A model generated the notes under the pieces. The model saw nothing but the letters and a program-made list of their open reading frames with translations, was not told the origin of the DNA and did no database searches. DNA of 64,000 bases from an uncultured Candidatus Saccharibacteria bacterium. Lineage in GTDB: Bacteria; Patescibacteriota; Minisyncoccia; Phycocordibacterales; EsbW-18. A program made the translations under genes and the position numbers. Below, in pieces: positions 4,933 through 60,227 of this stretch. Location: NCBI GenBank assembly GCA_964478705.1, contig CAYZIR010000005.1, positions 508 through 64,507 on the forward strand, read 5' to 3'. How positions within the stretch are numbered: the stretch's first letter is position 1; the number at the start of each line of letters is the position of its first letter.

Positions 4933-4950
4933 ATGTGTGCTTGGGGGCGG

Positions 4951-5110
4951 TTCGGTCACGAATCACTAAGTATTTTGCTCGCTTTGCTCACAAAATCCTA
5001 AGTGTTCTCGACCCCGCCTCGCCCCGCTCTGCGGGGCTCCGGCCTTCGAATCCTTCCCGAAGCTAAAACAAAAGTCGCCGAATGCTGACGCATCCGGCTC
5101 CTTTGTTTTT
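4951..5110 (-). repeat. ~160-bp tRNA-3'-flanking element bounded by 14-bp direct repeats of the tRNA-Phe 3' end
   Basis: GTGCTTGGGGGCGG at 4937..4950 and 5111..5124. Interior has hairpin CAAAACAAAGGAGCCGGATGCGTCAGCATTCGGCGACTTTTGTTTTAG and module GGATTCGAAGGCCGGAGCCCCGCAGAGCGGGGCGAGGCGGGGTCGAGAACACTTAGGATTTTG, homologous to the element 3' of tRNA-Leu(TAA) at 24758..24916. Confidence 0.7.
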
Positions 5111-5111
5111 G

Positions 5112-5185
5112 TGCTTGGGGGCGGATTCGAACCGCCGACCCTCTGCTCTTCAGGCAGATGCTCTAACCAACTGAGCTACCCAAGC
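5112..5185 (-). tRNA. tRNA-Phe (anticodon GAA), CCA not encoded
   Basis: Cloverleaf GCTTGGG/TA/GCTC..GAGC/TCTGC-CTGAAGA-GCAGA/GGCGG-TTCGAAT-CCGCC/CCCAAGC-A read on minus strand. Confidence 0.9.
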
Positions 5186-5186
5186 A

Positions 5187-5270
5187 TAATTCTTCTCTAA
5201 CCAATCCCGACGCTTCGGTCGGGACCCCGACCTCCGCCTTGCGGAGCGTCGGGGCTGAGCTACCCAAGCA
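5187..5270 (-). repeat. Partial tRNA-Phe 5' copy (nt 1-15 plus 16-25) interrupted at D-loop position 15/16 by a 50-nt GC-rich hairpin
   Basis: CTGAGCTACCCAAGCA at 5255..5270 duplicates 5171..5186. Insert TCCCGACGCTTCGGTCGGGACCCCGACCTCCGCCTTGCGGAGCGTCGGGG at 5205..5254. Near-identical insert at tRNA-Thr (60162..60211) and a related one at tRNA-Arg (5844..5903). Confidence 0.75.
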
Positions 5271-5464
5271 AATGAGGATGACACGCAGCGTTTAGGACGA
5301 AGGTTTCGAGGCGAGAGAAAAAGGAAGCTCGCTTACTTTTTCTTGAGACCGAGGAACCGGGAGTCCGAAGCTATGTGGTCCGAACGCCGCTTGGGTATGG
5401 TACTCCATATCCAAGTCTTGCGTATTCGCCATTTTACCACAATTTTCTAGCCTCTCAATGTACG

Positions 5465-5713: not shown

Positions 5714-5828
5714 GACTGAATTATATCATGCATCATTATGATATAGTCGTTTTACGCCCTCATATGAGTACATATGAGATCGGCGTTCGGACAGAATAAA
5801 AGCAAGCTTTCATTCTGCATCCTCACTT

Positions 5829-5916
5829 GCCCTCATAGTTCAAAGCCGACGCTACGAAGTAGGTCTACTCCCCGATTCACGCCTCGCGTGGCGTCGGGGC
5901 TGATAAGAAGGTGTAC
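5829..5916 (+). repeat. Partial tRNA-Arg 5' copy (nt 1-15) followed by a 60-nt GC-rich hairpin insert
   Basis: GCCCTCATAGTTCAA (5829..5843) is identical to tRNA-Arg nt 1-15; insert AGCCGACGCTACGAAG...GGCGTCGGGGCTGA (5844..5903) shares the ends AGCCGACGCT / GCGTCGGGGCTGA with the Phe and Thr inserts. Confidence 0.7.
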
Positions 5917-5918
5917 GC

Positions 5919-5990
5919 GCCCTCATAGTTCAACGGATAGAACAACTCCGTCCTAAGGAGTGGATCTAGGTTCAATTCCTGGTGAGGGCA
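5919..5990 (+). tRNA. tRNA-Arg (anticodon CCT)
   Basis: GCCCTCA acceptor pairs with TGAGGGC; anticodon stem ACTCC/GGAGT; loop GTCCTAA. Confidence 0.85.
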
Positions 5991-6188
5991 CAAAACAAAG
6001 GAGTCGGATGCGTCAGCATTCGGCGAGTTTTGTTTTGTAGCTTCACAACAGGGATTGAAAGTGAGTGCGGGGCACCCCGCCAGTAGGCGGGGTCGCACGA
6101 ACAGGGCCGAGCGGAACGAGGAGCGACGGCGACGAGTGAGCGCTTGGCCAATTCCTGGTGAGGGCACAAAACAAAGGAGTCGGATGCG
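5991..6188 (+). repeat. tRNA-Arg 3'-flanking element bounded by 39-bp direct repeats that include the tRNA 3' end
   Basis: AATTCCTGGTGAGGGCACAAAACAAAGGAGTCGGATGCG at 5974..6012 and 6150..6188. Interior carries hairpin CAAAACAAAGGAGTCGGATGCGTCAGCATTCGGCGAGTTTTGTTTTG and motif GGAGCGACGGCGACGAG. Confidence 0.7.
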
Positions 6189-21182: not shown

Positions 21183-21381
21183 TCATGTAGCGCGAAACAT
21201 GTAACATGTAGCGTGCAACACAGAATACGGAGTACAGAGTACGGAACATAGAGTACGGAGTACAGAGTACGGAACATAGAGTACGGAGTACAGAGTACGG
21301 AACATAGAGTACGGAACACGGAGTACGGAGTATGGAAACTCCAAACTCATGTACGCGTTACATGTTACATGTTTCGCGCTA
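21183..21381. repeat. 25-bp perfect inverted repeat enclosing a 28-bp tandem repeat array
   Basis: CATGTAGCGCGAAACATGTAACATGTA (21183..21209) and its reverse complement TACATGTTACATGTTTCGCGCTACA (21357..21381). Between them AGAGTACGGAGTACAGAGTACGGAACAT occurs three times plus partials. Confidence 0.8.
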
Positions 21382-24755: not shown

Positions 24756-24757
24756 CT

Positions 24758-24916
24758 CGGAGGAAATTTAAACATTTTGATCGACGGTGGGAATCGAAGG
24801 CCGGAGGCGCGCCATTGGTCTGAGCGCCGACCTGCCTGCCGGCAGGCAGGGGCGGGGTCGAGAGTACTTAGAATTTTAGGCGCATAGCGACTAAAATACT
24901 TGAGTTGCTCGTGACC
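24758..24916 (+). repeat. 159-bp tRNA-3'-flanking element bounded by 19-bp direct repeats of the tRNA-Leu(TAA) 3' end
   Basis: GATTCCCACCCTGGGCACT at 24739..24757 and 24917..24935. Interior ..GGAATCGAAGGCCGGAGGCGCG..GGGGCGGGGTCGAGAGTACTTAGAATTTTAGGCGCATAGCGACTAAAATACTTGAG..CGTGACC is homologous to the tRNA-Phe element. Confidence 0.75.
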
Positions 24917-24960
24917 GATTCCCACCCTGGGCACTTACAGAATATTTTCAAAATAGGGCA

Positions 24961-25011
24961 CTTTGTTGTAGAGTTGTTTGTACCACCCATATAGACAACC
25001 TATATGGGTGG
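24961..25011 (+). repeat. GGTTGT-repeat plus tRNA-Lys 5'-end fragment embedded in an 11-bp palindrome
   Basis: TTGTTGTAGAGTTGTTTGT then ACCACCCATA (= tRNA-Lys nt -1 to 9), forming the palindrome CCACCCATATAG-ACAACC-TATATGGGTGG. Confidence 0.5.
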
Positions 25012-25153
25012 GGCGTGCGGACCACATGGCGTAGATAGCTCGGGCTCCCATTTTCTCGTGCTCAAGCAAAAATAAGAACAAGCTCTTATTTTTGCTCTCC
25101 ACTCGAAAACACGCCCTCGCTTGAGAGACACACCGCGTGTCATCCTTACTAAA

Positions 25154-25226: not shown

Positions 25227-25284
25227 CAGCGTTTAGAAAAAGCTTGGCAACTTGTAATGATATGCGATTCGCCTTTTGTCTGTC

Positions 25285-25323
25285 TTTGTTGTAGGTTGTC
25301 TGTTGTAGGTTGTTGGTTATTTC
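25285..25323 (+). repeat. GGTTGT-type tandem repeat abutting the tRNA-Leu(TAG) 5' end
   Basis: TTTGTTGTAGGTTGTCTGTTGTAGGTTGTTGGTTATTTC followed immediately by the tRNA. Confidence 0.7.
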
Positions 25324-25405: not shown

Positions 25406-25570
25406 CAAAACAGAGAGCCGAGTGCGTCAGCATTCGGCAATTTTGTTTTGCGCGATTGAGAGAGGGCTCGAAGGGCGGAACCCCGCAGAGCGAGGTGAGC
25501 CGGGTCGAGAAATTTTTACGAGCGACGGCGAGTAAAAAAATGTTCTTGGCCGAATTCTCTCGGCCAAAGC
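25406..25570 (+). repeat. tRNA-Leu(TAG) 3'-flanking element with degenerate direct repeat
   Basis: Hairpin CAAAACAGAGAGCCGAGTGCGTCAGCATTCGGCAATTTTGTTTTG, module GGGCTCGAAGGGCGGAACCCCGCAGAGCGAGGTGAGCCGGGTCGAGAAA, motif ACGAGCGACGGCGAG. Degenerate repeat TCTCTCGGCCAAAGC (25556..25570) versus tRNA 3' TCTCTCGCCCACAAAAC. Followed by a perfect hairpin 25569..25597. Confidence 0.65.
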
Positions 25571-43801: not shown

Positions 43802-44896
43802 CTAAATTCTAAACTCAATCACATCCCCATCTTTAACGATATACTCCTTCCCTTCTGTTCGAACGAGACCTTTCGCACGTGCTTCAGCGTATGAACCAGA
43901 ATCAATCAAGTCTTTCCAAAACACCACTTCTGCACGGATGAATTTATCTTTGAAGTCCGTGTGAATCGCCGTGCCAGCGATTGGTGCAGTCGAACCACGA
44001 GCAATCGTCCATGCGCGGGTTTCGTCTTCCCCTGTTGTCAGGAATGTAATCAAGTCGAGGAGCGCGTAGCCCGAAACAATCAAATCCTCAATACCACCGC
44101 GAACTGAGAGACTCTTTCGCATTTCTCCACGCTCGCTATCATCAACCGCATTCAACTCCGATTCGTTGCTCGCATCAACAATAACGTACGACGCTTTTTC
44201 CTGCTCAAAGAACGCAAGAAGATTCTGCCAACGTGGATCGTTACCTTCATCCAGGTTCGTCCCACCAGATTGCACGTTCAAGACGTAGAGCATCTTCTTC
44301 ATCGTGAGAAGCGTGAGCTTTTTCACTTCTTTCTCTTCATCCTCGGTCAATGCAACGGTTCGTGCGAACTTCTCCGCCAACAATGCTTCTTTTACCTTTG
44401 CGAGACCATTTCGTTCATGGAGTGCTTCCTTGAGCCCCGCACGTACCTCCTTTTCAACGGAGGAAAGACGCTTTTCAACAACCGCAAGATCCGCGAGAAT
44501 CAGCTCCAAGTTAATCACCTTGATGTCTTCGAGCGGTTCAATCTTTCCTGCAACGTGGATAATGTCGCCGTGCTCGAAGATGCGCACCACGTGCGCAATC
44601 GCATCAACCTCTTTGATGTGCGAAAGGAATTTGTTGCCGAGTCCCTGCCCTTCCGACGCACCCTTCACCAACCCCGCGATATCAACGAATTGAATTGCTG
44701 CAGGGATTGTTTTCTTCGACTTTGAAAAGTCAGTGAGTGCTTTCAAACGTGCGTCAGGTACTTCGACAATACCGACTGACGGGTCAATCGTACAAAACGG
44801 ATAGTTTGCAGCATCAACCGATTGTTTCGTAAGCGCATTAAAAAGGGTCGATTTGCCGACATTCGGTAATCCAACAATTCCGATTGATAAATTCAT
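43802..44896 (-). CDS. ychF: Ribosome-binding ATPase YchF/Ola1
   Basis: GIVGLPNVGKSTLFNALT P-loop, TGS C-terminal domain. Start at ATG 44896 (MNLSIGIVG). Confidence 0.9.
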   Translation of the reverse strand: MNLSIGIVGLPNVGKSTLFNALTKQSVDAANYPFCTIDPSVGIVEVPDARLKALTDFSKSKKTIPAAIQFVDIAGLVKGASEGQGLGNKFLSHIKEVDAIAHVVRIFEHGDIIHVAGKIEPLEDIKVINLELILADLAVVEKRLSSVEKEVRAGLKEALHERNGLAKVKEALLAEKFARTVALTEDEEKEVKKLTLLTMKKMLYVLNVQSGGTNLDEGNDPRWQNLLAFFEQEKASYVIVDASNESELNAVDDSERGEMRKSLSVRGGIEDLIVSGYALLDLITFLTTGEDETRAWTIARGSTAPIAGTAIHTDFKDKFIRAEVVFWKDLIDSGSYAEARAKGLVRTEGKEYIVKDGDVIEFRI

Positions 44897-44899
44897 ATT

Positions 44900-45012
44900 A
44901 AATGCGATATACATTACCCTCTGAAACCACTACCTGCCCCGCGAGATGCGATGCTATCTCTGCGGGGCCGACGTTCGGTAATCCAACAATTCCGATTGAT
45001 AAGTTCATATTA
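44900..45012 (-). repeat. 45-bp duplication of the ychF start region separated by a 68-bp GC-rich near-palindromic insert
   Basis: CCGACATTCGGTAATCCAACAATTCCGATTGATAAATTCATATTA (44855..44899) versus CCGACGTTCGG...GATAAGTTCATATTA (44968..45012), 2 mismatches. Insert contains CCCCGCGAGATGCGATGCTATCTCTGCGGGG. Confidence 0.75.
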
Positions 45013-55556: not shown

Positions 55557-57950
55557 TTAGCGCACCTCCCATCCCTTTCCGCGAATCTCATCCTCAATCT
55601 TACCCATGATCTCACTCACCTCAACATCAGAGAGCGTTTTTTCGTTCGATTGAAAGACGATGTGATATGCGTATGATGTTCTTCCCTCTTTGGTGAATGT
55701 ATCGAAAAGATCCAACCGAGCAAGAAGTTTGCCAGCATGACTTTTGATGACGCCTTCGAGATCTTCTGAGCTGTTGGTTGTTGGTTGTTGGTTGTTGGTT
55801 CCCCCGACCCATACTGCAATGTCACGAAGGATAAAAGGATAGACCGAGATCGGCGCGAATGTCATGTTTGGCAAACGTGGCAAGTCGCCGTACGAGTCAG
55901 GAGTTGGAAGCGATTTGATCGTTTTTGAAAGGGATGCGGTGGCAATGTTTGCTCGCTTCATCCATACAAGCGGAGAAGTGGAGGTCGTCGTCACTGCTGC
56001 AATTGCAGCATCAAGATCTCTGCCCTTTTCTGTCGCAATCCCAATTTGTTGTTCCTCACCAGTCTTACTAAATATGGTGCCAATTTCGAAAATTCGTACA
56101 GCATCGACGCCAATGAGCGGCCTATTTTTTTGGTTGAGCTCAAGGGCAGCCTTTAAACCTTCTACGAGTGACGAACGAAGATATTTTTTATCATTAGCAA
56201 TCGGGTTCGCTACTTCAATTTCACCATCGTCTTGAAATGAGTATGTCGACACCTCGGAAAAGCCGGCATCAACAAGCGCTCGGCGGACGAGCGCTTTGTA
56301 GTATTCGTTCTTGTTGACCGCAGGTGTGAATCCGTCGAAAGGCAACGGTGTTGATGGAATCGATTCAAGACCTTTGAGCCGGCCGATTTCTTCGATCAAA
56401 TCTTCTTTGATACGGATGTCGATGCGCGGCGCGGGAACTGTCACCACAAAGCGTGGTTCGTTGTTCGTGATGATGCGACGATAGCCGACGATATTTTCAA
56501 ATGCCTTGGAACCAGAAAGATCTTCAATGACGACTTCGCCCTTATCCCATTTTCCTGATGCATGAAGGATTTTCCCTTCACCAAGATAGATGCCGTTGTG
56601 ATCGATACCTGCCGAGAGCTTTGTCCCTGCCATGAATTCATGCGAGACACTTGTCTGACGAACTTGGTCGATACCAAGACTTTCAATATGTTCTGTCGAT
56701 CCATCACCCTTTCGATCTGAGAATACGATGTCTCCCGCACGAAGATCATTTGCCTCAACCGGCGCACTAAAAACAAACTGATCAACAGCCATACGCGGAA
56801 TTGCGATTCCAGCTTGTGCGTAGAGATATGCGACCAAAGATGAGCAGTCGAAAGCTCTTGGCGCATCACTCAAAACACTTGCACCGTATTTGTATGGAGC
56901 GCCAACCAAGGTTGGAGCAAGTTTCAAAATCTGTTCAAGCGGCTGTATGTAGGTGTATTCAAAACCAAGACGCTTGAAGTAGTCTTCGACCTCACTTTGA
57001 GAACACGTCGTGCCGAGCGCTGTGTTAATTTCCGAAAGTGAGACGCCAACAACGTAGAGATTCTTTTTGTTTGGATACGACTCAACAATGTCTTGTGCGA
57101 CTTTTCCATTCGCGAGCTCTTCAATGAGTGCCGAAAGACGCTCCATAGCAATCGCAGTAAGTTCAGGACTGATTCCCTGCTCGAATCGGATTGACGCATC
57201 GGTGCGAAGTCCGAGCTTCTTTGATGTCTTGCGAATGTTTACGGGATCAAAATTGCAGACCGAAAGAACGATGCGTGTCGTGTTCGCATCAATACCCGAT
57301 GTCGAACCGCCTTTTACGCCAGCAATATCGAGTGCTTTCTCGCTGTCGCTGATAACAAGAACGTCTGGGTTCAGTACGAATTCCTTACCATCAAGGGTGG
57401 TGATTGTTTCATCTTCTTTTGCTGAACGTATTGAAAGAGCTGTTGGTTGTGAGTTGTTGGTTGTGAGTTTGTCATAGTCGAATGCGTGAACCGGCTGACC
57501 TGTTTCGAGCATCGTGAGGTTCGTTGCATCAACAACGTTGTTGATCGAACGCTGTCCGTGTGCAGCAAGTTTTATTTTGAGCCATTCGGGAGATTCGCCG
57601 ATTGTGACACCTTCGACATAGCGCTTCATTGCGCGTGGAACGAGCTTTGAGTTTTCGATGGTAAGCGAAAGATGATCGCTTGTTGAAATACCTGAGTCGG
57701 TTTTTGGATGAGCCTCAGGAATGTTTGCTGTGACATTGAGAAGCGCGGCGACTTCACGAGCGATACCGTGGTATGAAAAACCATCGTGGGAACGGTTTGG
57801 AAGCACTTTGATATCGAGAATCGTATCGCTGCCGTGTGACTCGGTTCCGTCGATTTCAAATGCATGCATCGTAATCGTGCGCGACAAATCAGCAACCGAT
57901 GGAAGCGGTTTGTCGAAATATTCCTGAAGCCATGCGTAGGAGAATTTCAT
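55557..57950 (-). CDS. pheT: Phenylalanyl-tRNA synthetase beta subunit carrying an inserted NlpC/P60 domain and two in-frame microsatellite insertions
   Basis: B1 and B3/4 (..PEWLKIKLAAHGQRSINNVVDATN..), B5 (..VEDYFKRLGF..), B6/7 (..VTVPAPRIDIRIKEDLIEEIGRLKG..), FDX-ACB C-terminus. aa ~340-490 (nt ~56481..56933) carry APYKYGAS..FDCSSLVAYLY..AGDIVFS..HNGIYLGEGKILHAS. Repeat-coded peptides TTNNSQPT (nt 57441..57464) and GGTNNQQPTTN (nt 55770..55802). Confidence 0.85.
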   Translation of the reverse strand: MKFSYAWLQEYFDKPLPSVADLSRTITMHAFEIDGTESHGSDTILDIKVLPNRSHDGFSYHGIAREVAALLNVTANIPEAHPKTDSGISTSDHLSLTIENSKLVPRAMKRYVEGVTIGESPEWLKIKLAAHGQRSINNVVDATNLTMLETGQPVHAFDYDKLTTNNSQPTALSIRSAKEDETITTLDGKEFVLNPDVLVISDSEKALDIAGVKGGSTSGIDANTTRIVLSVCNFDPVNIRKTSKKLGLRTDASIRFEQGISPELTAIAMERLSALIEELANGKVAQDIVESYPNKKNLYVVGVSLSEINTALGTTCSQSEVEDYFKRLGFEYTYIQPLEQILKLAPTLVGAPYKYGASVLSDAPRAFDCSSLVAYLYAQAGIAIPRMAVDQFVFSAPVEANDLRAGDIVFSDRKGDGSTEHIESLGIDQVRQTSVSHEFMAGTKLSAGIDHNGIYLGEGKILHASGKWDKGEVVIEDLSGSKAFENIVGYRRIITNNEPRFVVTVPAPRIDIRIKEDLIEEIGRLKGLESIPSTPLPFDGFTPAVNKNEYYKALVRRALVDAGFSEVSTYSFQDDGEIEVANPIANDKKYLRSSLVEGLKAALELNQKNRPLIGVDAVRIFEIGTIFSKTGEEQQIGIATEKGRDLDAAIAAVTTTSTSPLVWMKRANIATASLSKTIKSLPTPDSYGDLPRLPNMTFAPISVYPFILRDIAVWVGGTNNQQPTTNSSEDLEGVIKSHAGKLLARLDLFDTFTKEGRTSYAYHIVFQSNEKTLSDVEVSEIMGKIEDEIRGKGWEVR

Positions 57951-60142: not shown

Positions 60143-60150
60143 AATATATT

Positions 60151-60227
60151 TATTCTACCAAAGCCGACGCTTCGGTCGGCTCCCCGACCCTCGCCCTGCG
60201 AGGCGTCGGGGCTGAGCTAAAGCGGCA
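60151..60227 (-). repeat. Partial tRNA-Thr 5' copy interrupted at D-loop 15/16 by a 50-nt GC-rich hairpin (sibling of the tRNA-Phe insert)
   Basis: CTGAGCTAAAGCGGCA at 60212..60227 duplicates 60128..60143. Insert AGCCGACGCTTCGGTCGGCTCCCCGACCCTCGCCCTGCGAGGCGTCGGGG (60162..60211) is ~85% identical to 5205..5254. Confidence 0.75.

Follow-up and report, generated by a model that had tools for sequence, protein, structure and literature searches.

The tRNA-Arg(CCT) gene at 5919-5990/1 of a 64,000-nucleotide stretch of contig CAYZIR010000005.1, from an uncultured Candidatus Saccharibacteria bacterium, is flanked on both sides by partial copies of itself and by short hairpin-forming blocks; the whole stretch is referred to here as the window. 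The blocks are probably tRNA-end-targeting, non-coding, non-autonomous miniature insertion elements of the tRNA and transfer-messenger RNA (tmRNA) genes of Patescibacteria, and the Arg locus would then be a pile-up in which one gene has been struck at least three times and probably four. On the 5′ side, the apparent remnant of one element type (Z) lies behind a copy of tRNA positions 1-9, and a second type (X) seems to sit inside a copy of positions 1-~23. The 3′ side is read as one unit, composed of a terminator-like hairpin (H), a segment complementary to the tRNA end (I) and a folded core, followed by a displaced tRNA end beginning at C56 and then by a 21-nt stub. Each surviving insertion appears to leave an intact tRNA beside a displaced partial copy. 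The first-pass annotation of this DNA had proposed a hotspot of repeated or nested insertion, and this is borne out by two nested 5′ insertions (the Z remnant, then X), one 3′ unit and the hairpin stub.

The gene was called on the plus strand by ARAGORN and by the Rfam tRNA model (61.1 bits), and is framed by two exact direct repeats. The 15-nt 5′ duplication that had been claimed is real (5829-5843 = 5919-5933, tRNA 1-15, spacing 90), and the 75 nt separating its copies contain a double hairpin. The 3′ repeat is likewise real, although it measures 40 nt rather than the 39 first given (5973-6012 = 6149-6188, spacing 176, with mismatches bounding both sides). It comprises the tRNA from C56 to the 3′ end (19 nt) and the first 21 nt, not 23, of the 45-nt hairpin H, so that the duplicated unit is, as had been supposed, the tRNA end plus the start of the hairpin. 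By our own arithmetic, an exact 40-mer repeat in 2.4 kb is expected by chance about 1e-18 times, and recurrence of a given 15-mer within 300 nt about 3e-7 times; the latter is seen at three of the ten window tRNAs, in each case at identical tRNA positions. Further upstream there is a third partial copy (tRNA 1-9), overlooked in the first-pass annotation, followed by a 64-nt insert. The 136 bp between the 40-nt copies (6013-6148) encode nothing plausible, and the long open reading frames (ORFs) crossing them are mechanical, antisense to the tRNA and unsupported. The parts of the locus are as follows, L241 being a syntenic relative introduced below.

5740-5755, plus strand: original upstream flank of tRNA-Arg (gatatagtcgttttac); the same 16-mer abuts tRNA +1 in L241
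5756-5764, plus strand: outermost displaced 5′ fragment, tRNA 1-9 (gccctcata), occupying the tRNA start site of L241
5765-5828, plus strand: truncated Z 5′ element, with loop tgagtaca, partial inverted tRNA 1-9 copy tatgag, and ggcgttcggac...catcctcactt
5829-5843, plus strand: second displaced 5′ fragment, the exact tRNA 1-15 copy found by the repeat-search script
5844-5901, plus strand: X insert, a double hairpin (..CCGACG.. / CCCCGA...CGTCGGGGCT), at position 15/16 of the displaced tRNA copy
5902-5918, plus strand: diverged copy of tRNA ~17-23 (gataagaa) and 9-nt spacer ggtgtacgc
5919-5991, plus strand: intact tRNA-Arg(CCT), CCA not encoded (ARAGORN, Rfam)
5973-6012, plus strand: 40-nt repeat copy 1, tRNA C56 to 3′ end and hairpin nt 1-21
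5992-6036, plus strand: hairpin H, an intrinsic-terminator-like stem-loop with T tract, predicted as a terminator-like site
6037-6059, plus strand: segment I, a diverged inverted copy of the tRNA 3′ end (..TCAC..CAGGGATTGAA)
6060-6148, plus strand: divergent 3′ core of two hairpins, keeping GGCGGGGTCG and GAGCGACGGCGA and ending ..CTTGGC
6149-6188, plus strand: 40-nt repeat copy 2, the displaced tRNA 3′ end (19 nt) and a second hairpin H stub (21 nt)

Several of these parts have close counterparts elsewhere. The Arg hairpin H shares 96% of its sequence with the hairpin after tRNA-Phe in the window, the two having been found as a complementary pair; the Phe hairpin is in turn identical (45/45) to the one after tRNA-Gly(TCC) in the metagenome-assembled genome (MAG) L109, with 2/45 differences between the Arg hairpin and either of them. 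Segment I pairs with 5973-5991, which lengthens hairpin H to a stem-loop of ~85 nt. The Arg core has a fold z-score of -8.6 (three-hairpin fold) and aligns in layout with the elements at tRNA-Phe, tRNA-Leu(TAA) and tRNA-Leu(TAG). On the 5′ side, the layout of the Arg Z (direct copy of tRNA 1-9, loop, inverted copy, core, tRNA) matches that at Lys and Phe in the window and at tRNAs in other contigs, and the stretch corresponding to 5902-5918 is, at Phe and Thr, an exact copy of their own tRNA 16-25 and 16-23, respectively. The 21-nt hairpin stub after the displaced tRNA end is best read as what is left of an older tandem unit that has been largely deleted, since such elements form tandem arrays elsewhere.

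The first-pass annotation had proposed a comparison with orthologous regions. Two syntenic relatives were fetched through their LepA homologues: L241 (83% LepA identity) and L242, the closed Campbellbacteria genome CP064977.1 (77%); the closest named LepA relatives of the window are from Campbellbacteria, Paceibacterota and Wolfebacteria. The order of tRNA-Gly(CCC), tRNA-Arg(CCT) and tRNA-Phe(GAA) is the same in L241 and L242, and the sites compare as follows.

Arg(CCT): window with Z remnant, X and 3′ unit; L241 with no 5′ insert; L242 with nothing on either side
Phe(GAA): window with Z, X and 3′ unit; L241 bare on both sides; L242 with Z only
Gly(CCC): window with no 3′ unit; L241 with no core detected; L242 with a 3′ unit
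Trp: window with no 3′ unit; L241 locus outside the fetched stretch; L242 with a 3′ unit

Because the syntenic relatives are without 5′ inserts at Arg, and one is also without a 3′ insert, the blocks flanking tRNA-Arg stand out, on comparison of the sequences, as insertions relative to the orthologous loci. At the Arg locus of L241 the flank gatatagtcgttttac directly abuts +1, and the 3′ side carries only a degenerate element of ~80 nt with a 9-10-nt repeat. The Phe tRNA of L241 is 100% identical to that of the window and yet has no inserts. The 3′ unit at tRNA-Gly(CCC) of L242 has the same type of ~40-nt repeat, tRNA end plus hairpin start, as the window Arg locus.

When each of the ten window tRNAs was compared with its own flanks by script, tRNA 1-15 was found duplicated 84-90 nt upstream at Phe, Thr and Arg, and the tRNA 3′ end 174-178 nt downstream at Phe, Arg and Leu(TAA). 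Four of the ten tRNAs have a 3′ unit, three have X at position 15/16, and three have Z (Phe, Lys and the remnant at Arg). The elements outside the Arg locus are the following.

4936-5400, minus strand: tRNA-Phe locus, all three element types
5271-5400, minus strand: Z of tRNA-Phe, with an inverted copy of tRNA 1-9 at 5389-5397
5186-5270, minus strand: X unit of tRNA-Phe, the tRNA itself at 5111-5185
5065-5109, 5045-5064, 4955-5048 and 4936-4950, minus strand: 3′ unit of tRNA-Phe, respectively H, I, core and displaced 3′ end
24757-24935, plus strand: 3′ element after tRNA-Leu(TAA), with inverted copy ggtgggaatcgaa at 24786-24798, core at 24795-24915 and displaced tRNA end at 24916-24935
24983-25153, plus strand: full Z upstream of tRNA-Lys(CTT), with ccacccata, loop, tatgggtgg and a core ending catccttactaaa
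25407-25569, plus strand: older 3′ element after tRNA-Leu(TAG), with hairpin H, inverted copy, core at 25469-25550 and decayed tRNA-end copy
60143-60226, minus strand: X unit upstream of tRNA-Thr(TGT), with tRNA 1-15, X, tRNA 16-23 and spacer

Most tRNA genes of the window lack an encoded CCA (tRNA-Thr has one), and several end in ..GCAC followed by an A-rich hairpin.

The blocks belong to recurrent families, and the 3′ family is widespread. When GTDB genomes were scanned with a 16-mer taken from hairpin H, about 117 of the matches were due to chance and only two were true relatives (L094, L109), one a Saccharibacteria-labelled MAG with elements after tRNA-Gly(TCC) and tRNA-Arg(TCG), the other a Parcubacteria-labelled MAG with an element after tRNA-Arg(GCG); the elements of both are 84-86% identical to the window Phe element. 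With Campbellbacteria added, the family is seen in MAGs carrying three labels, which are the submitters' own. A 21-nt core motif was present in at least 120 metagenome contigs in the metagenome scan, and a scan of viral contigs with the same motif gave no match. Built from 66 cores, a covariance model (R1) found 130 copies that do not overlap, spread over 100 sources; a contig often has several, and some are in tandem. In the window it scores the cores at Phe, Leu(TAA) and Leu(TAG) at 88.6, 61.1 and 25.9 bits (E = 3e-4 for the last). Among the 130 copies, 63 follow a same-strand tRNA (23 anticodon types), one follows an ARAGORN-called tmRNA and nine follow another core in tandem; several of the others follow tmRNA-like or tRNA-Met-like 3′ ends missed by ARAGORN, and some follow other sequence. 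A tRNA or tmRNA gene precedes about half of the family copies, or more.

The elements are also dense in some genomes. Contig L164 has three cores in tandem within 430 nt (173-599), L182 carries a tandem array of 3′ elements, and several cores per contig are found in L150, L152, L161 and L188 as well. Upstream of cores in L137, L143, L180, L149 and L182 there is a tRNA-Met-like 3′ end (..ccccggttcgattccgggccccgcaac) uncalled by ARAGORN, possibly belonging to a tRNA gene with an insertion or intron. In L215 (2320-2504) a disrupted pseudo-copy of tRNA-Ala(TGC) lies upstream of an intact copy, with a hairpin and a core of the family between its positions 24 and 28 and with its anticodon stem-loop turned into a perfect palindrome.

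Read 5′ to 3′, a 3′ unit consists of the tRNA end (D1), the terminator-like hairpin, sometimes a small extra hairpin, the inverted copy of D1 (segment I), the core, and a direct copy of D1 (D2), an arrangement that places a terminator-like hairpin directly behind the tRNA. The core, of ~100 nt, has two hairpins, a short one that GCC/GGC closes and a long, imperfect one that ends ...GTGAC, with the motif GCCGSAG..GGCGGGGTCGMGAACACTTAG..CTTAGTGATTCGTGAC in R1. It is conserved and covarying, and it folds on the tRNA-sense strand. In an alignment that was itself fitted to the model, 95.9% of cells are paired, as against 79% in shuffles (0/500 reach the observed value) and 26-43% with slid partners, and 25 of the 26 core pairs show compensatory changes. 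G-U pairs are tolerated in the core and one is invariant, which shows that the tRNA-sense strand is the folding strand. An apical C(GNA)G loop is present in at least 39 of 72 copies (3% by chance); this triloop is that of the very stable DNA mini-hairpin of the d(GCGAAGC) type. Apart from tRNAs, nothing in the elements reaches an Rfam gathering score, and over the cores no Rfam match appears even at E <= 10; literature searches with core strings and keywords gave nothing relevant, and we did not find the 3′ family described.

The relation of the unit to its tRNA is best seen in the inverted copy and at the junction. Of 64 non-redundant copies, 53 (83%) have an inverted match of at least 9 nt immediately before the core, the longest match expected by chance being ~6 nt. 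The 3′ junction between core and C56 is precise and the far end of the repeat variable: in the family whose core ends in GTGAC, D2 begins at C56 in 15 cases, while the other end of the repeat lies between -10 (in decayed copies) and +45 nt, counted from the tRNA end. Among related contigs, 45 non-redundant tRNAs have the same direct repeat of their 3′ part. Some copies sit at the acceptor end with repeats of 4-8 nt only. At Phe, Gly(TCC) and Arg(GCG), where the elements are 84-86% identical overall and each has its own tRNA end, segment I is a mosaic, its hairpin-proximal part matching the local tRNA and its core-proximal part being common to the elements. Once near-identical duplicates are set aside, pairs of elements at the same tRNA are no more alike than pairs at different tRNAs; neither tRNA-specific element lineages nor near-identical copies at different tRNAs were seen in the identity comparison. 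At least two further 3′ core families share this layout, their junctions lying at T54 or G53, and the modules are combinable. Examples of these other families (L182 1338-1620, L176 125-330, L141 3957-4150, L195 3413-3600) include the strings ..CATGTAAT|G53 and GCCCGATTGAG..CCAATTGGGGTACTGAA..TGTAAGT|T54.

The two 5′ element types differ in layout from the 3′ unit and from each other. An X unit, in tRNA sense, contains tRNA 1-15, the double hairpin X of ~50-58 nt, tRNA 16-~25, a spacer of 9-11 nt and the intact tRNA. X is inserted at position 15/16 in the D-loop, in either orientation relative to the tRNA. On the plus strand the Arg X is 74-81% identical to the inserts at Phe (5187-5254) and Thr (60158-60211). 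The first-pass annotation had described the Arg insert as oriented on the forward strand like the Phe and Thr inserts although tRNA-Arg lies on the opposite strand, and this holds: all three X copies read the same way on the plus strand, with tRNA-Arg encoded on the plus and tRNA-Phe and tRNA-Thr on the minus strand, so that the insert at Arg is inverted relative to its tRNA. All three are flanked as YCAA|X|CKGA (ACCAA|..|CTGAG at Phe and Thr, TTCAA|..|CTGAT at Arg), and these three copies hint at a likeness to site- and strand-specific hairpin elements in the style of repetitive extragenic palindromic (REP) sequences or IS200/IS605. Z consists of a direct copy of tRNA 1-9, a short loop, the inverted copy and a ~60-150-nt core ending catcctYAYT, followed by the tRNA. 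Full versions, at 24983-25153 and 5271-5400 of the window and at 9230-9374 of L242, have a conserved core of ~130-150 nt directly before tRNA +1, and shorter versions of 75-80 nt are found at tRNA-Asp, Thr, Arg and Phe in other contigs. Z may carry the tRNA promoter. A catcct motif is conserved 5-7 nt before tRNA +1 at Phe, Arg and Lys. A BLAST search among the fetched loci for relatives of the Arg-type core, X and Z found none beyond the window.

The units, 75-190 bp long, contain no ORF. Of 29 proteins encoded in the 64-kb window, all have Pfam matches to housekeeping families or none, with no integrase and no Y1/HUH enzyme among them; the neighbours are DoxX, HSP20 and other housekeeping genes. 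Clustering of the ORFs within 3 kb of at least 120 metagenome loci returned housekeeping families and one helix-turn-helix protein, with no recurrent mobility gene, and no integrase, transposase or reverse transcriptase was found near the units of the window. Because they have no internal ORF, and no mobility gene was found among the window proteins or recurs near these loci, the units are non-autonomous.

How such elements might spread can be sketched only tentatively, and the following scheme as a whole is possible without being the probable outcome. The direct repeats would come from the target and not from the element, the simplest reading given that homologues found at many tRNA species each have the tRNA end of their own site. 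One junction would be set by a nick at a fixed place in the T-loop DNA; the duplication would then be generated when the tRNA end is resynthesised, or by a second cut of variable position beyond it. Selection would keep only those events that leave the essential tRNA intact, with the element's own terminator-like hairpin keeping the tRNA transcript bounded. Segment I would have been adapted afterwards, through template switching across hairpin H that extends the palindrome, and a trans-acting enzyme encoded elsewhere would recognise the folded core with its apical C(GNA)G triloop. X, for its part, would enter beside YCAA on one genomic strand and cause no duplication, in REP or IS200/IS605 style. 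A bolder version, speculative and rather unlikely to hold, is that these are undescribed 'self-healing' tRNA-end elements: hairpin units of ~100-180 nt, active as single-stranded DNA or RNA and inserted in trans at a T- or D-loop nick of any tRNA or tmRNA gene, with the tRNA end resynthesised from the template and a terminator (3′) or promoter (5′) supplied by the unit. If true, this would amount to an insertion mechanism of a new kind, whose target is universal and defined by structure.

A number of observations count against the insertion-element reading. No mobilising enzyme was identified, and neither a circular or excised form nor a recent transposition event was observed. A direct repeat of at least 9 nt follows the core in only 20 of 64 copies (31%), so that duplication is not universal. 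Core copies on the same contig are 35-63% identical, no pair at different tRNAs exceeds 86%, and they show no sign of a recent burst of the classical MITE type; the low identity between copies means that turnover is slow or that copies are kept by selection, and a host function would account equally well for old, divergent copies that keep their motifs. Because the 21-nt motif was itself the search pattern, its conservation at the metagenome loci is in part a product of the search. The extra piece of tRNA 16-25 in X units, in addition to the intact gene downstream, is unexplained by simple target duplication. Finally, the Arg 3′ core itself is undetected by R1 at E <= 10, and is treated here as a divergent or degenerate relative and not as a model-confirmed member; its membership rests on hairpin H (96% to Phe), on its layout and on the strings GGCGGGGTCG, GAGCGACGGCGA and, in common with Leu(TAG), the terminal ..CTTGGC.

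Four other explanations may be weighed against this background. The elements might be structured RNAs with a host function, or cis-regulatory trailers that are co-transcribed with or released from the pre-tRNA; they could then serve in processing or termination, or switch by antisense pairing with the tRNA 3′ strand, with the tRNA copies as pairing partners and not scars. Strong covariation with strand-specific G-U pairs would be expected of such an RNA, as would the constant sense orientation behind the tRNA, the retention of the inverted copy far more often (83%) than the direct one (31%), and the persistence of motifs in old, divergent copies within a genome. It is harder to reconcile with a terminator-like hairpin between tRNA and core, with presence and absence varying at orthologous tRNAs of relatives, with any tRNA species having or lacking the element, with degenerate copies at Arg, Leu(TAG) and the Arg locus of L241, and with tandem arrays and a copy inside a disrupted pseudo-tRNA. 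A host-function RNA is quite unlikely on this balance, yet the reading stays alive and is compatible with mobility. For all three element types, single-stranded DNA hairpin transposition of the IS200/IS605 kind, or of the kind by which REP sequences are moved by REP-associated tyrosine transposases (RAYTs), is unlikely. In that scheme a Y1/HUH enzyme would recognise sub-terminal hairpins, and the inverted copy would be a long guide pairing with the target and with the element's own right end. X resembles the double hairpin of a REP doublet (REPIN) in one genomic orientation, always as YCAA|...|CKGA; the last structure of the 3′ core is a long imperfect hairpin with the junction at its foot; its C(GNA)G loops belong to the very stable DNA mini-hairpin type; and the right-end hairpins have the inverted copy on their 5′ side and the direct copy on their 3′ side, where the IS608 right end has its guide and its cleavage site, respectively. 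Against it, there is no Y1/HUH gene among the window proteins, IS200/IS605 elements use sites of 4-5 nt without duplication and not 19 nt, segment I seems secondarily adapted, unlike a programmed guide, and the target motif rests on three X copies only.

Miniature integrase-type islands, or fused attL/attR remnants of them, are a distinctly improbable source of the units. In that case a tyrosine integrase would act in trans on an attachment site (attP) containing a tRNA 3′ segment, and the regenerated tRNA and the displaced fragment would mark the unit ends. The choice of tRNA and tmRNA genes, a repeat from the T-loop to just beyond the 3′ end, tandem arrays and the regenerated gene adjoining a displaced fragment all fit. 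The units, however, are 75-190 bp with no ORF; no integrase occurs in the window or recurs near the at least 120 loci; homologues at 23 tRNA species carry the local tRNA end, which an element-borne attP does not predict; a covarying hairpin core and a tRNA-specific inverted copy are unmatched in attP arms; and several elements have repeats of only 4-8 nt, at the acceptor end. The last explanation, put forward as a possible refutation in the first-pass annotation, is that collapsed or mis-joined reads produced the 40-nt repeat and the partial tRNA copies. A short-read Logan contig from the same organism (L001) does break within repeat copy 2, which it enters by 30 nt from the right flank before ending at window ~6159; such a break is expected for a true repeat that exceeds the assembler word size. 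The same contig independently reproduces the junction of copy 2 with the right flank, the flanks of the two copies differ and make sense, and the closed genome CP064977.1 shows the same architecture, its ~40-nt repeat included, as do dozens of independent contigs and assemblies for the general layout. An artefact is therefore hardly credible.

Further resemblances were considered and set aside. A CRISPR-repeat idea, raised by the ending '..GGGATTGAAAG', fell away once the string proved to be the T-loop in inverted copy. The core also resembles, to the eye, group II intron domain V ('GAGCCGTAG'), a hammerhead ('UGAG..CGAA') and a k-turn, with no Rfam support at E <= 10. A retron-like a1/a2 reading found no nearby reverse transcriptase in the window or at the at least 120 loci; a TnpB/omega-RNA-like reading, of a scaffold with a 20-nt 3′ guide, found no linked nuclease gene, and for this as for a weak tRNA-like minihelix reading, in which segment I pairs with the displaced copy, the direct copy is kept too seldom.

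Among known systems, the nearest in principle are the genomic islands and prophages that tyrosine integrases place in tRNA or tmRNA genes (the Islander principle, PMC4383910). Integration in the T-loop is reportedly one of the sublocation classes of tRNA-gene integration distinguished by Williams in 2002. The hallmarks of tDNA islands are integration into tRNA or tmRNA genes, a regenerated gene, and a displaced fragment that marks the far end (PMC4383910). The units described here share the tRNA and tmRNA targets, the regenerated gene with its displaced fragment, the repeat from T-loop to 3′ end and the tandem arrays. They differ in their size, in having no integrase or ORF, in displacing 5′ fragments too, in carrying the local tRNA end at many species, and in having a covarying hairpin core and an inverted copy of the target. 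They show the tRNA 3′ direct repeat of such islands and have no integrase gene, and their homologous cores stand behind 23 tRNA species, where an element-borne attP would tie one lineage to one tRNA. A 5′ tRNA fragment displaced upstream of an intact gene is also known from the archaeal Caldiarchaeum tRNA-Thr, where the insert is 1.8 kb and encodes a recombinase (PMC3293823); the inserts here are bacterial and consist of 64-75 nt of hairpins.

Like miniature inverted-repeat transposable elements (MITEs) and REP/REPIN sequences, the units are small, non-coding, multi-copy, hairpin-forming and, if mobile, mobilised in trans, and X resembles a REPIN doublet. Unlike MITEs, they have no terminal inverted repeats of their own, the only inverted repeats flanking the core being copies of the local tRNA end; there is no fixed short target duplication, the repeats running from 4 to at least 40 nt of tRNA sequence; copies within a genome are 35-63% identical and not near-identical; and the location is strictly at tRNA ends. 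With IS200/IS605 ends and palindrome-associated transposable elements (PATEs) they share imperfect hairpins in sub-terminal position, folding of one particular strand and, 5′ of the right-end hairpin, a guide-like segment complementary to what lies 3′ of that hairpin, whereas no TnpA or TnpB was found in the 64-kb window, the complementarity is 9-20 nt and not 4, the target is duplicated in the 3′ element, and no Rfam match links the units to IS605-associated RNAs. In contrast to retron non-coding RNAs, no reverse transcriptase gene lies downstream among window neighbours, and no neighbour gene recurs at the at least 120 loci. Ty3 and the Dictyostelium TRE elements are eukaryotic tRNA-gene-targeted retrotransposons that insert outside the gene and encode their own enzymes. 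As in these and in target-primed insertion generally, the units use tRNA landing pads and have one precise junction, a variable duplication length and a variable element 5′ part, although neither a reverse transcriptase nor a poly(A)-like tail was seen in them. On their defining features, the units do not qualify as integrase islands, MITEs or retrons, nor do they match any Rfam family.

The window holds other repeats besides. In an intergenic stretch, at 21189-21356, a 14-nt unit (AGTACGGAACATAG-like) is repeated head to tail about twelve times, and a 46-nt direct repeat, 96% identical and 112 nt apart, lies at 44855-44900 and 44967-45012 near the end of a YchF GTPase gene. Short repeats of the GTTGTTGGTT type occur at 25283-25318, 55765-55800 and 57434-57469, the first just upstream of tRNA-Leu(TAG).

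In practical terms, the elements fragment short-read assemblies at tRNA loci and can mislead the annotation of tRNAs and of islands. Known users of tRNA genes are kilobase-sized elements with their own integrase, whereas the units described here are about 100 times smaller and encode nothing, and yet elements with a folded core stand behind many tRNA species across a bacterial radiation of very small genomes. If they are mobile, some enzyme must recognise a feature common to all tRNA genes and insert there without destroying an essential single-copy gene; such an enzyme would be of mechanistic interest and possibly useful as a tool. If they are not mobile, they would constitute a widespread RNA or DNA signal attached to the tRNA genes of these bacteria.

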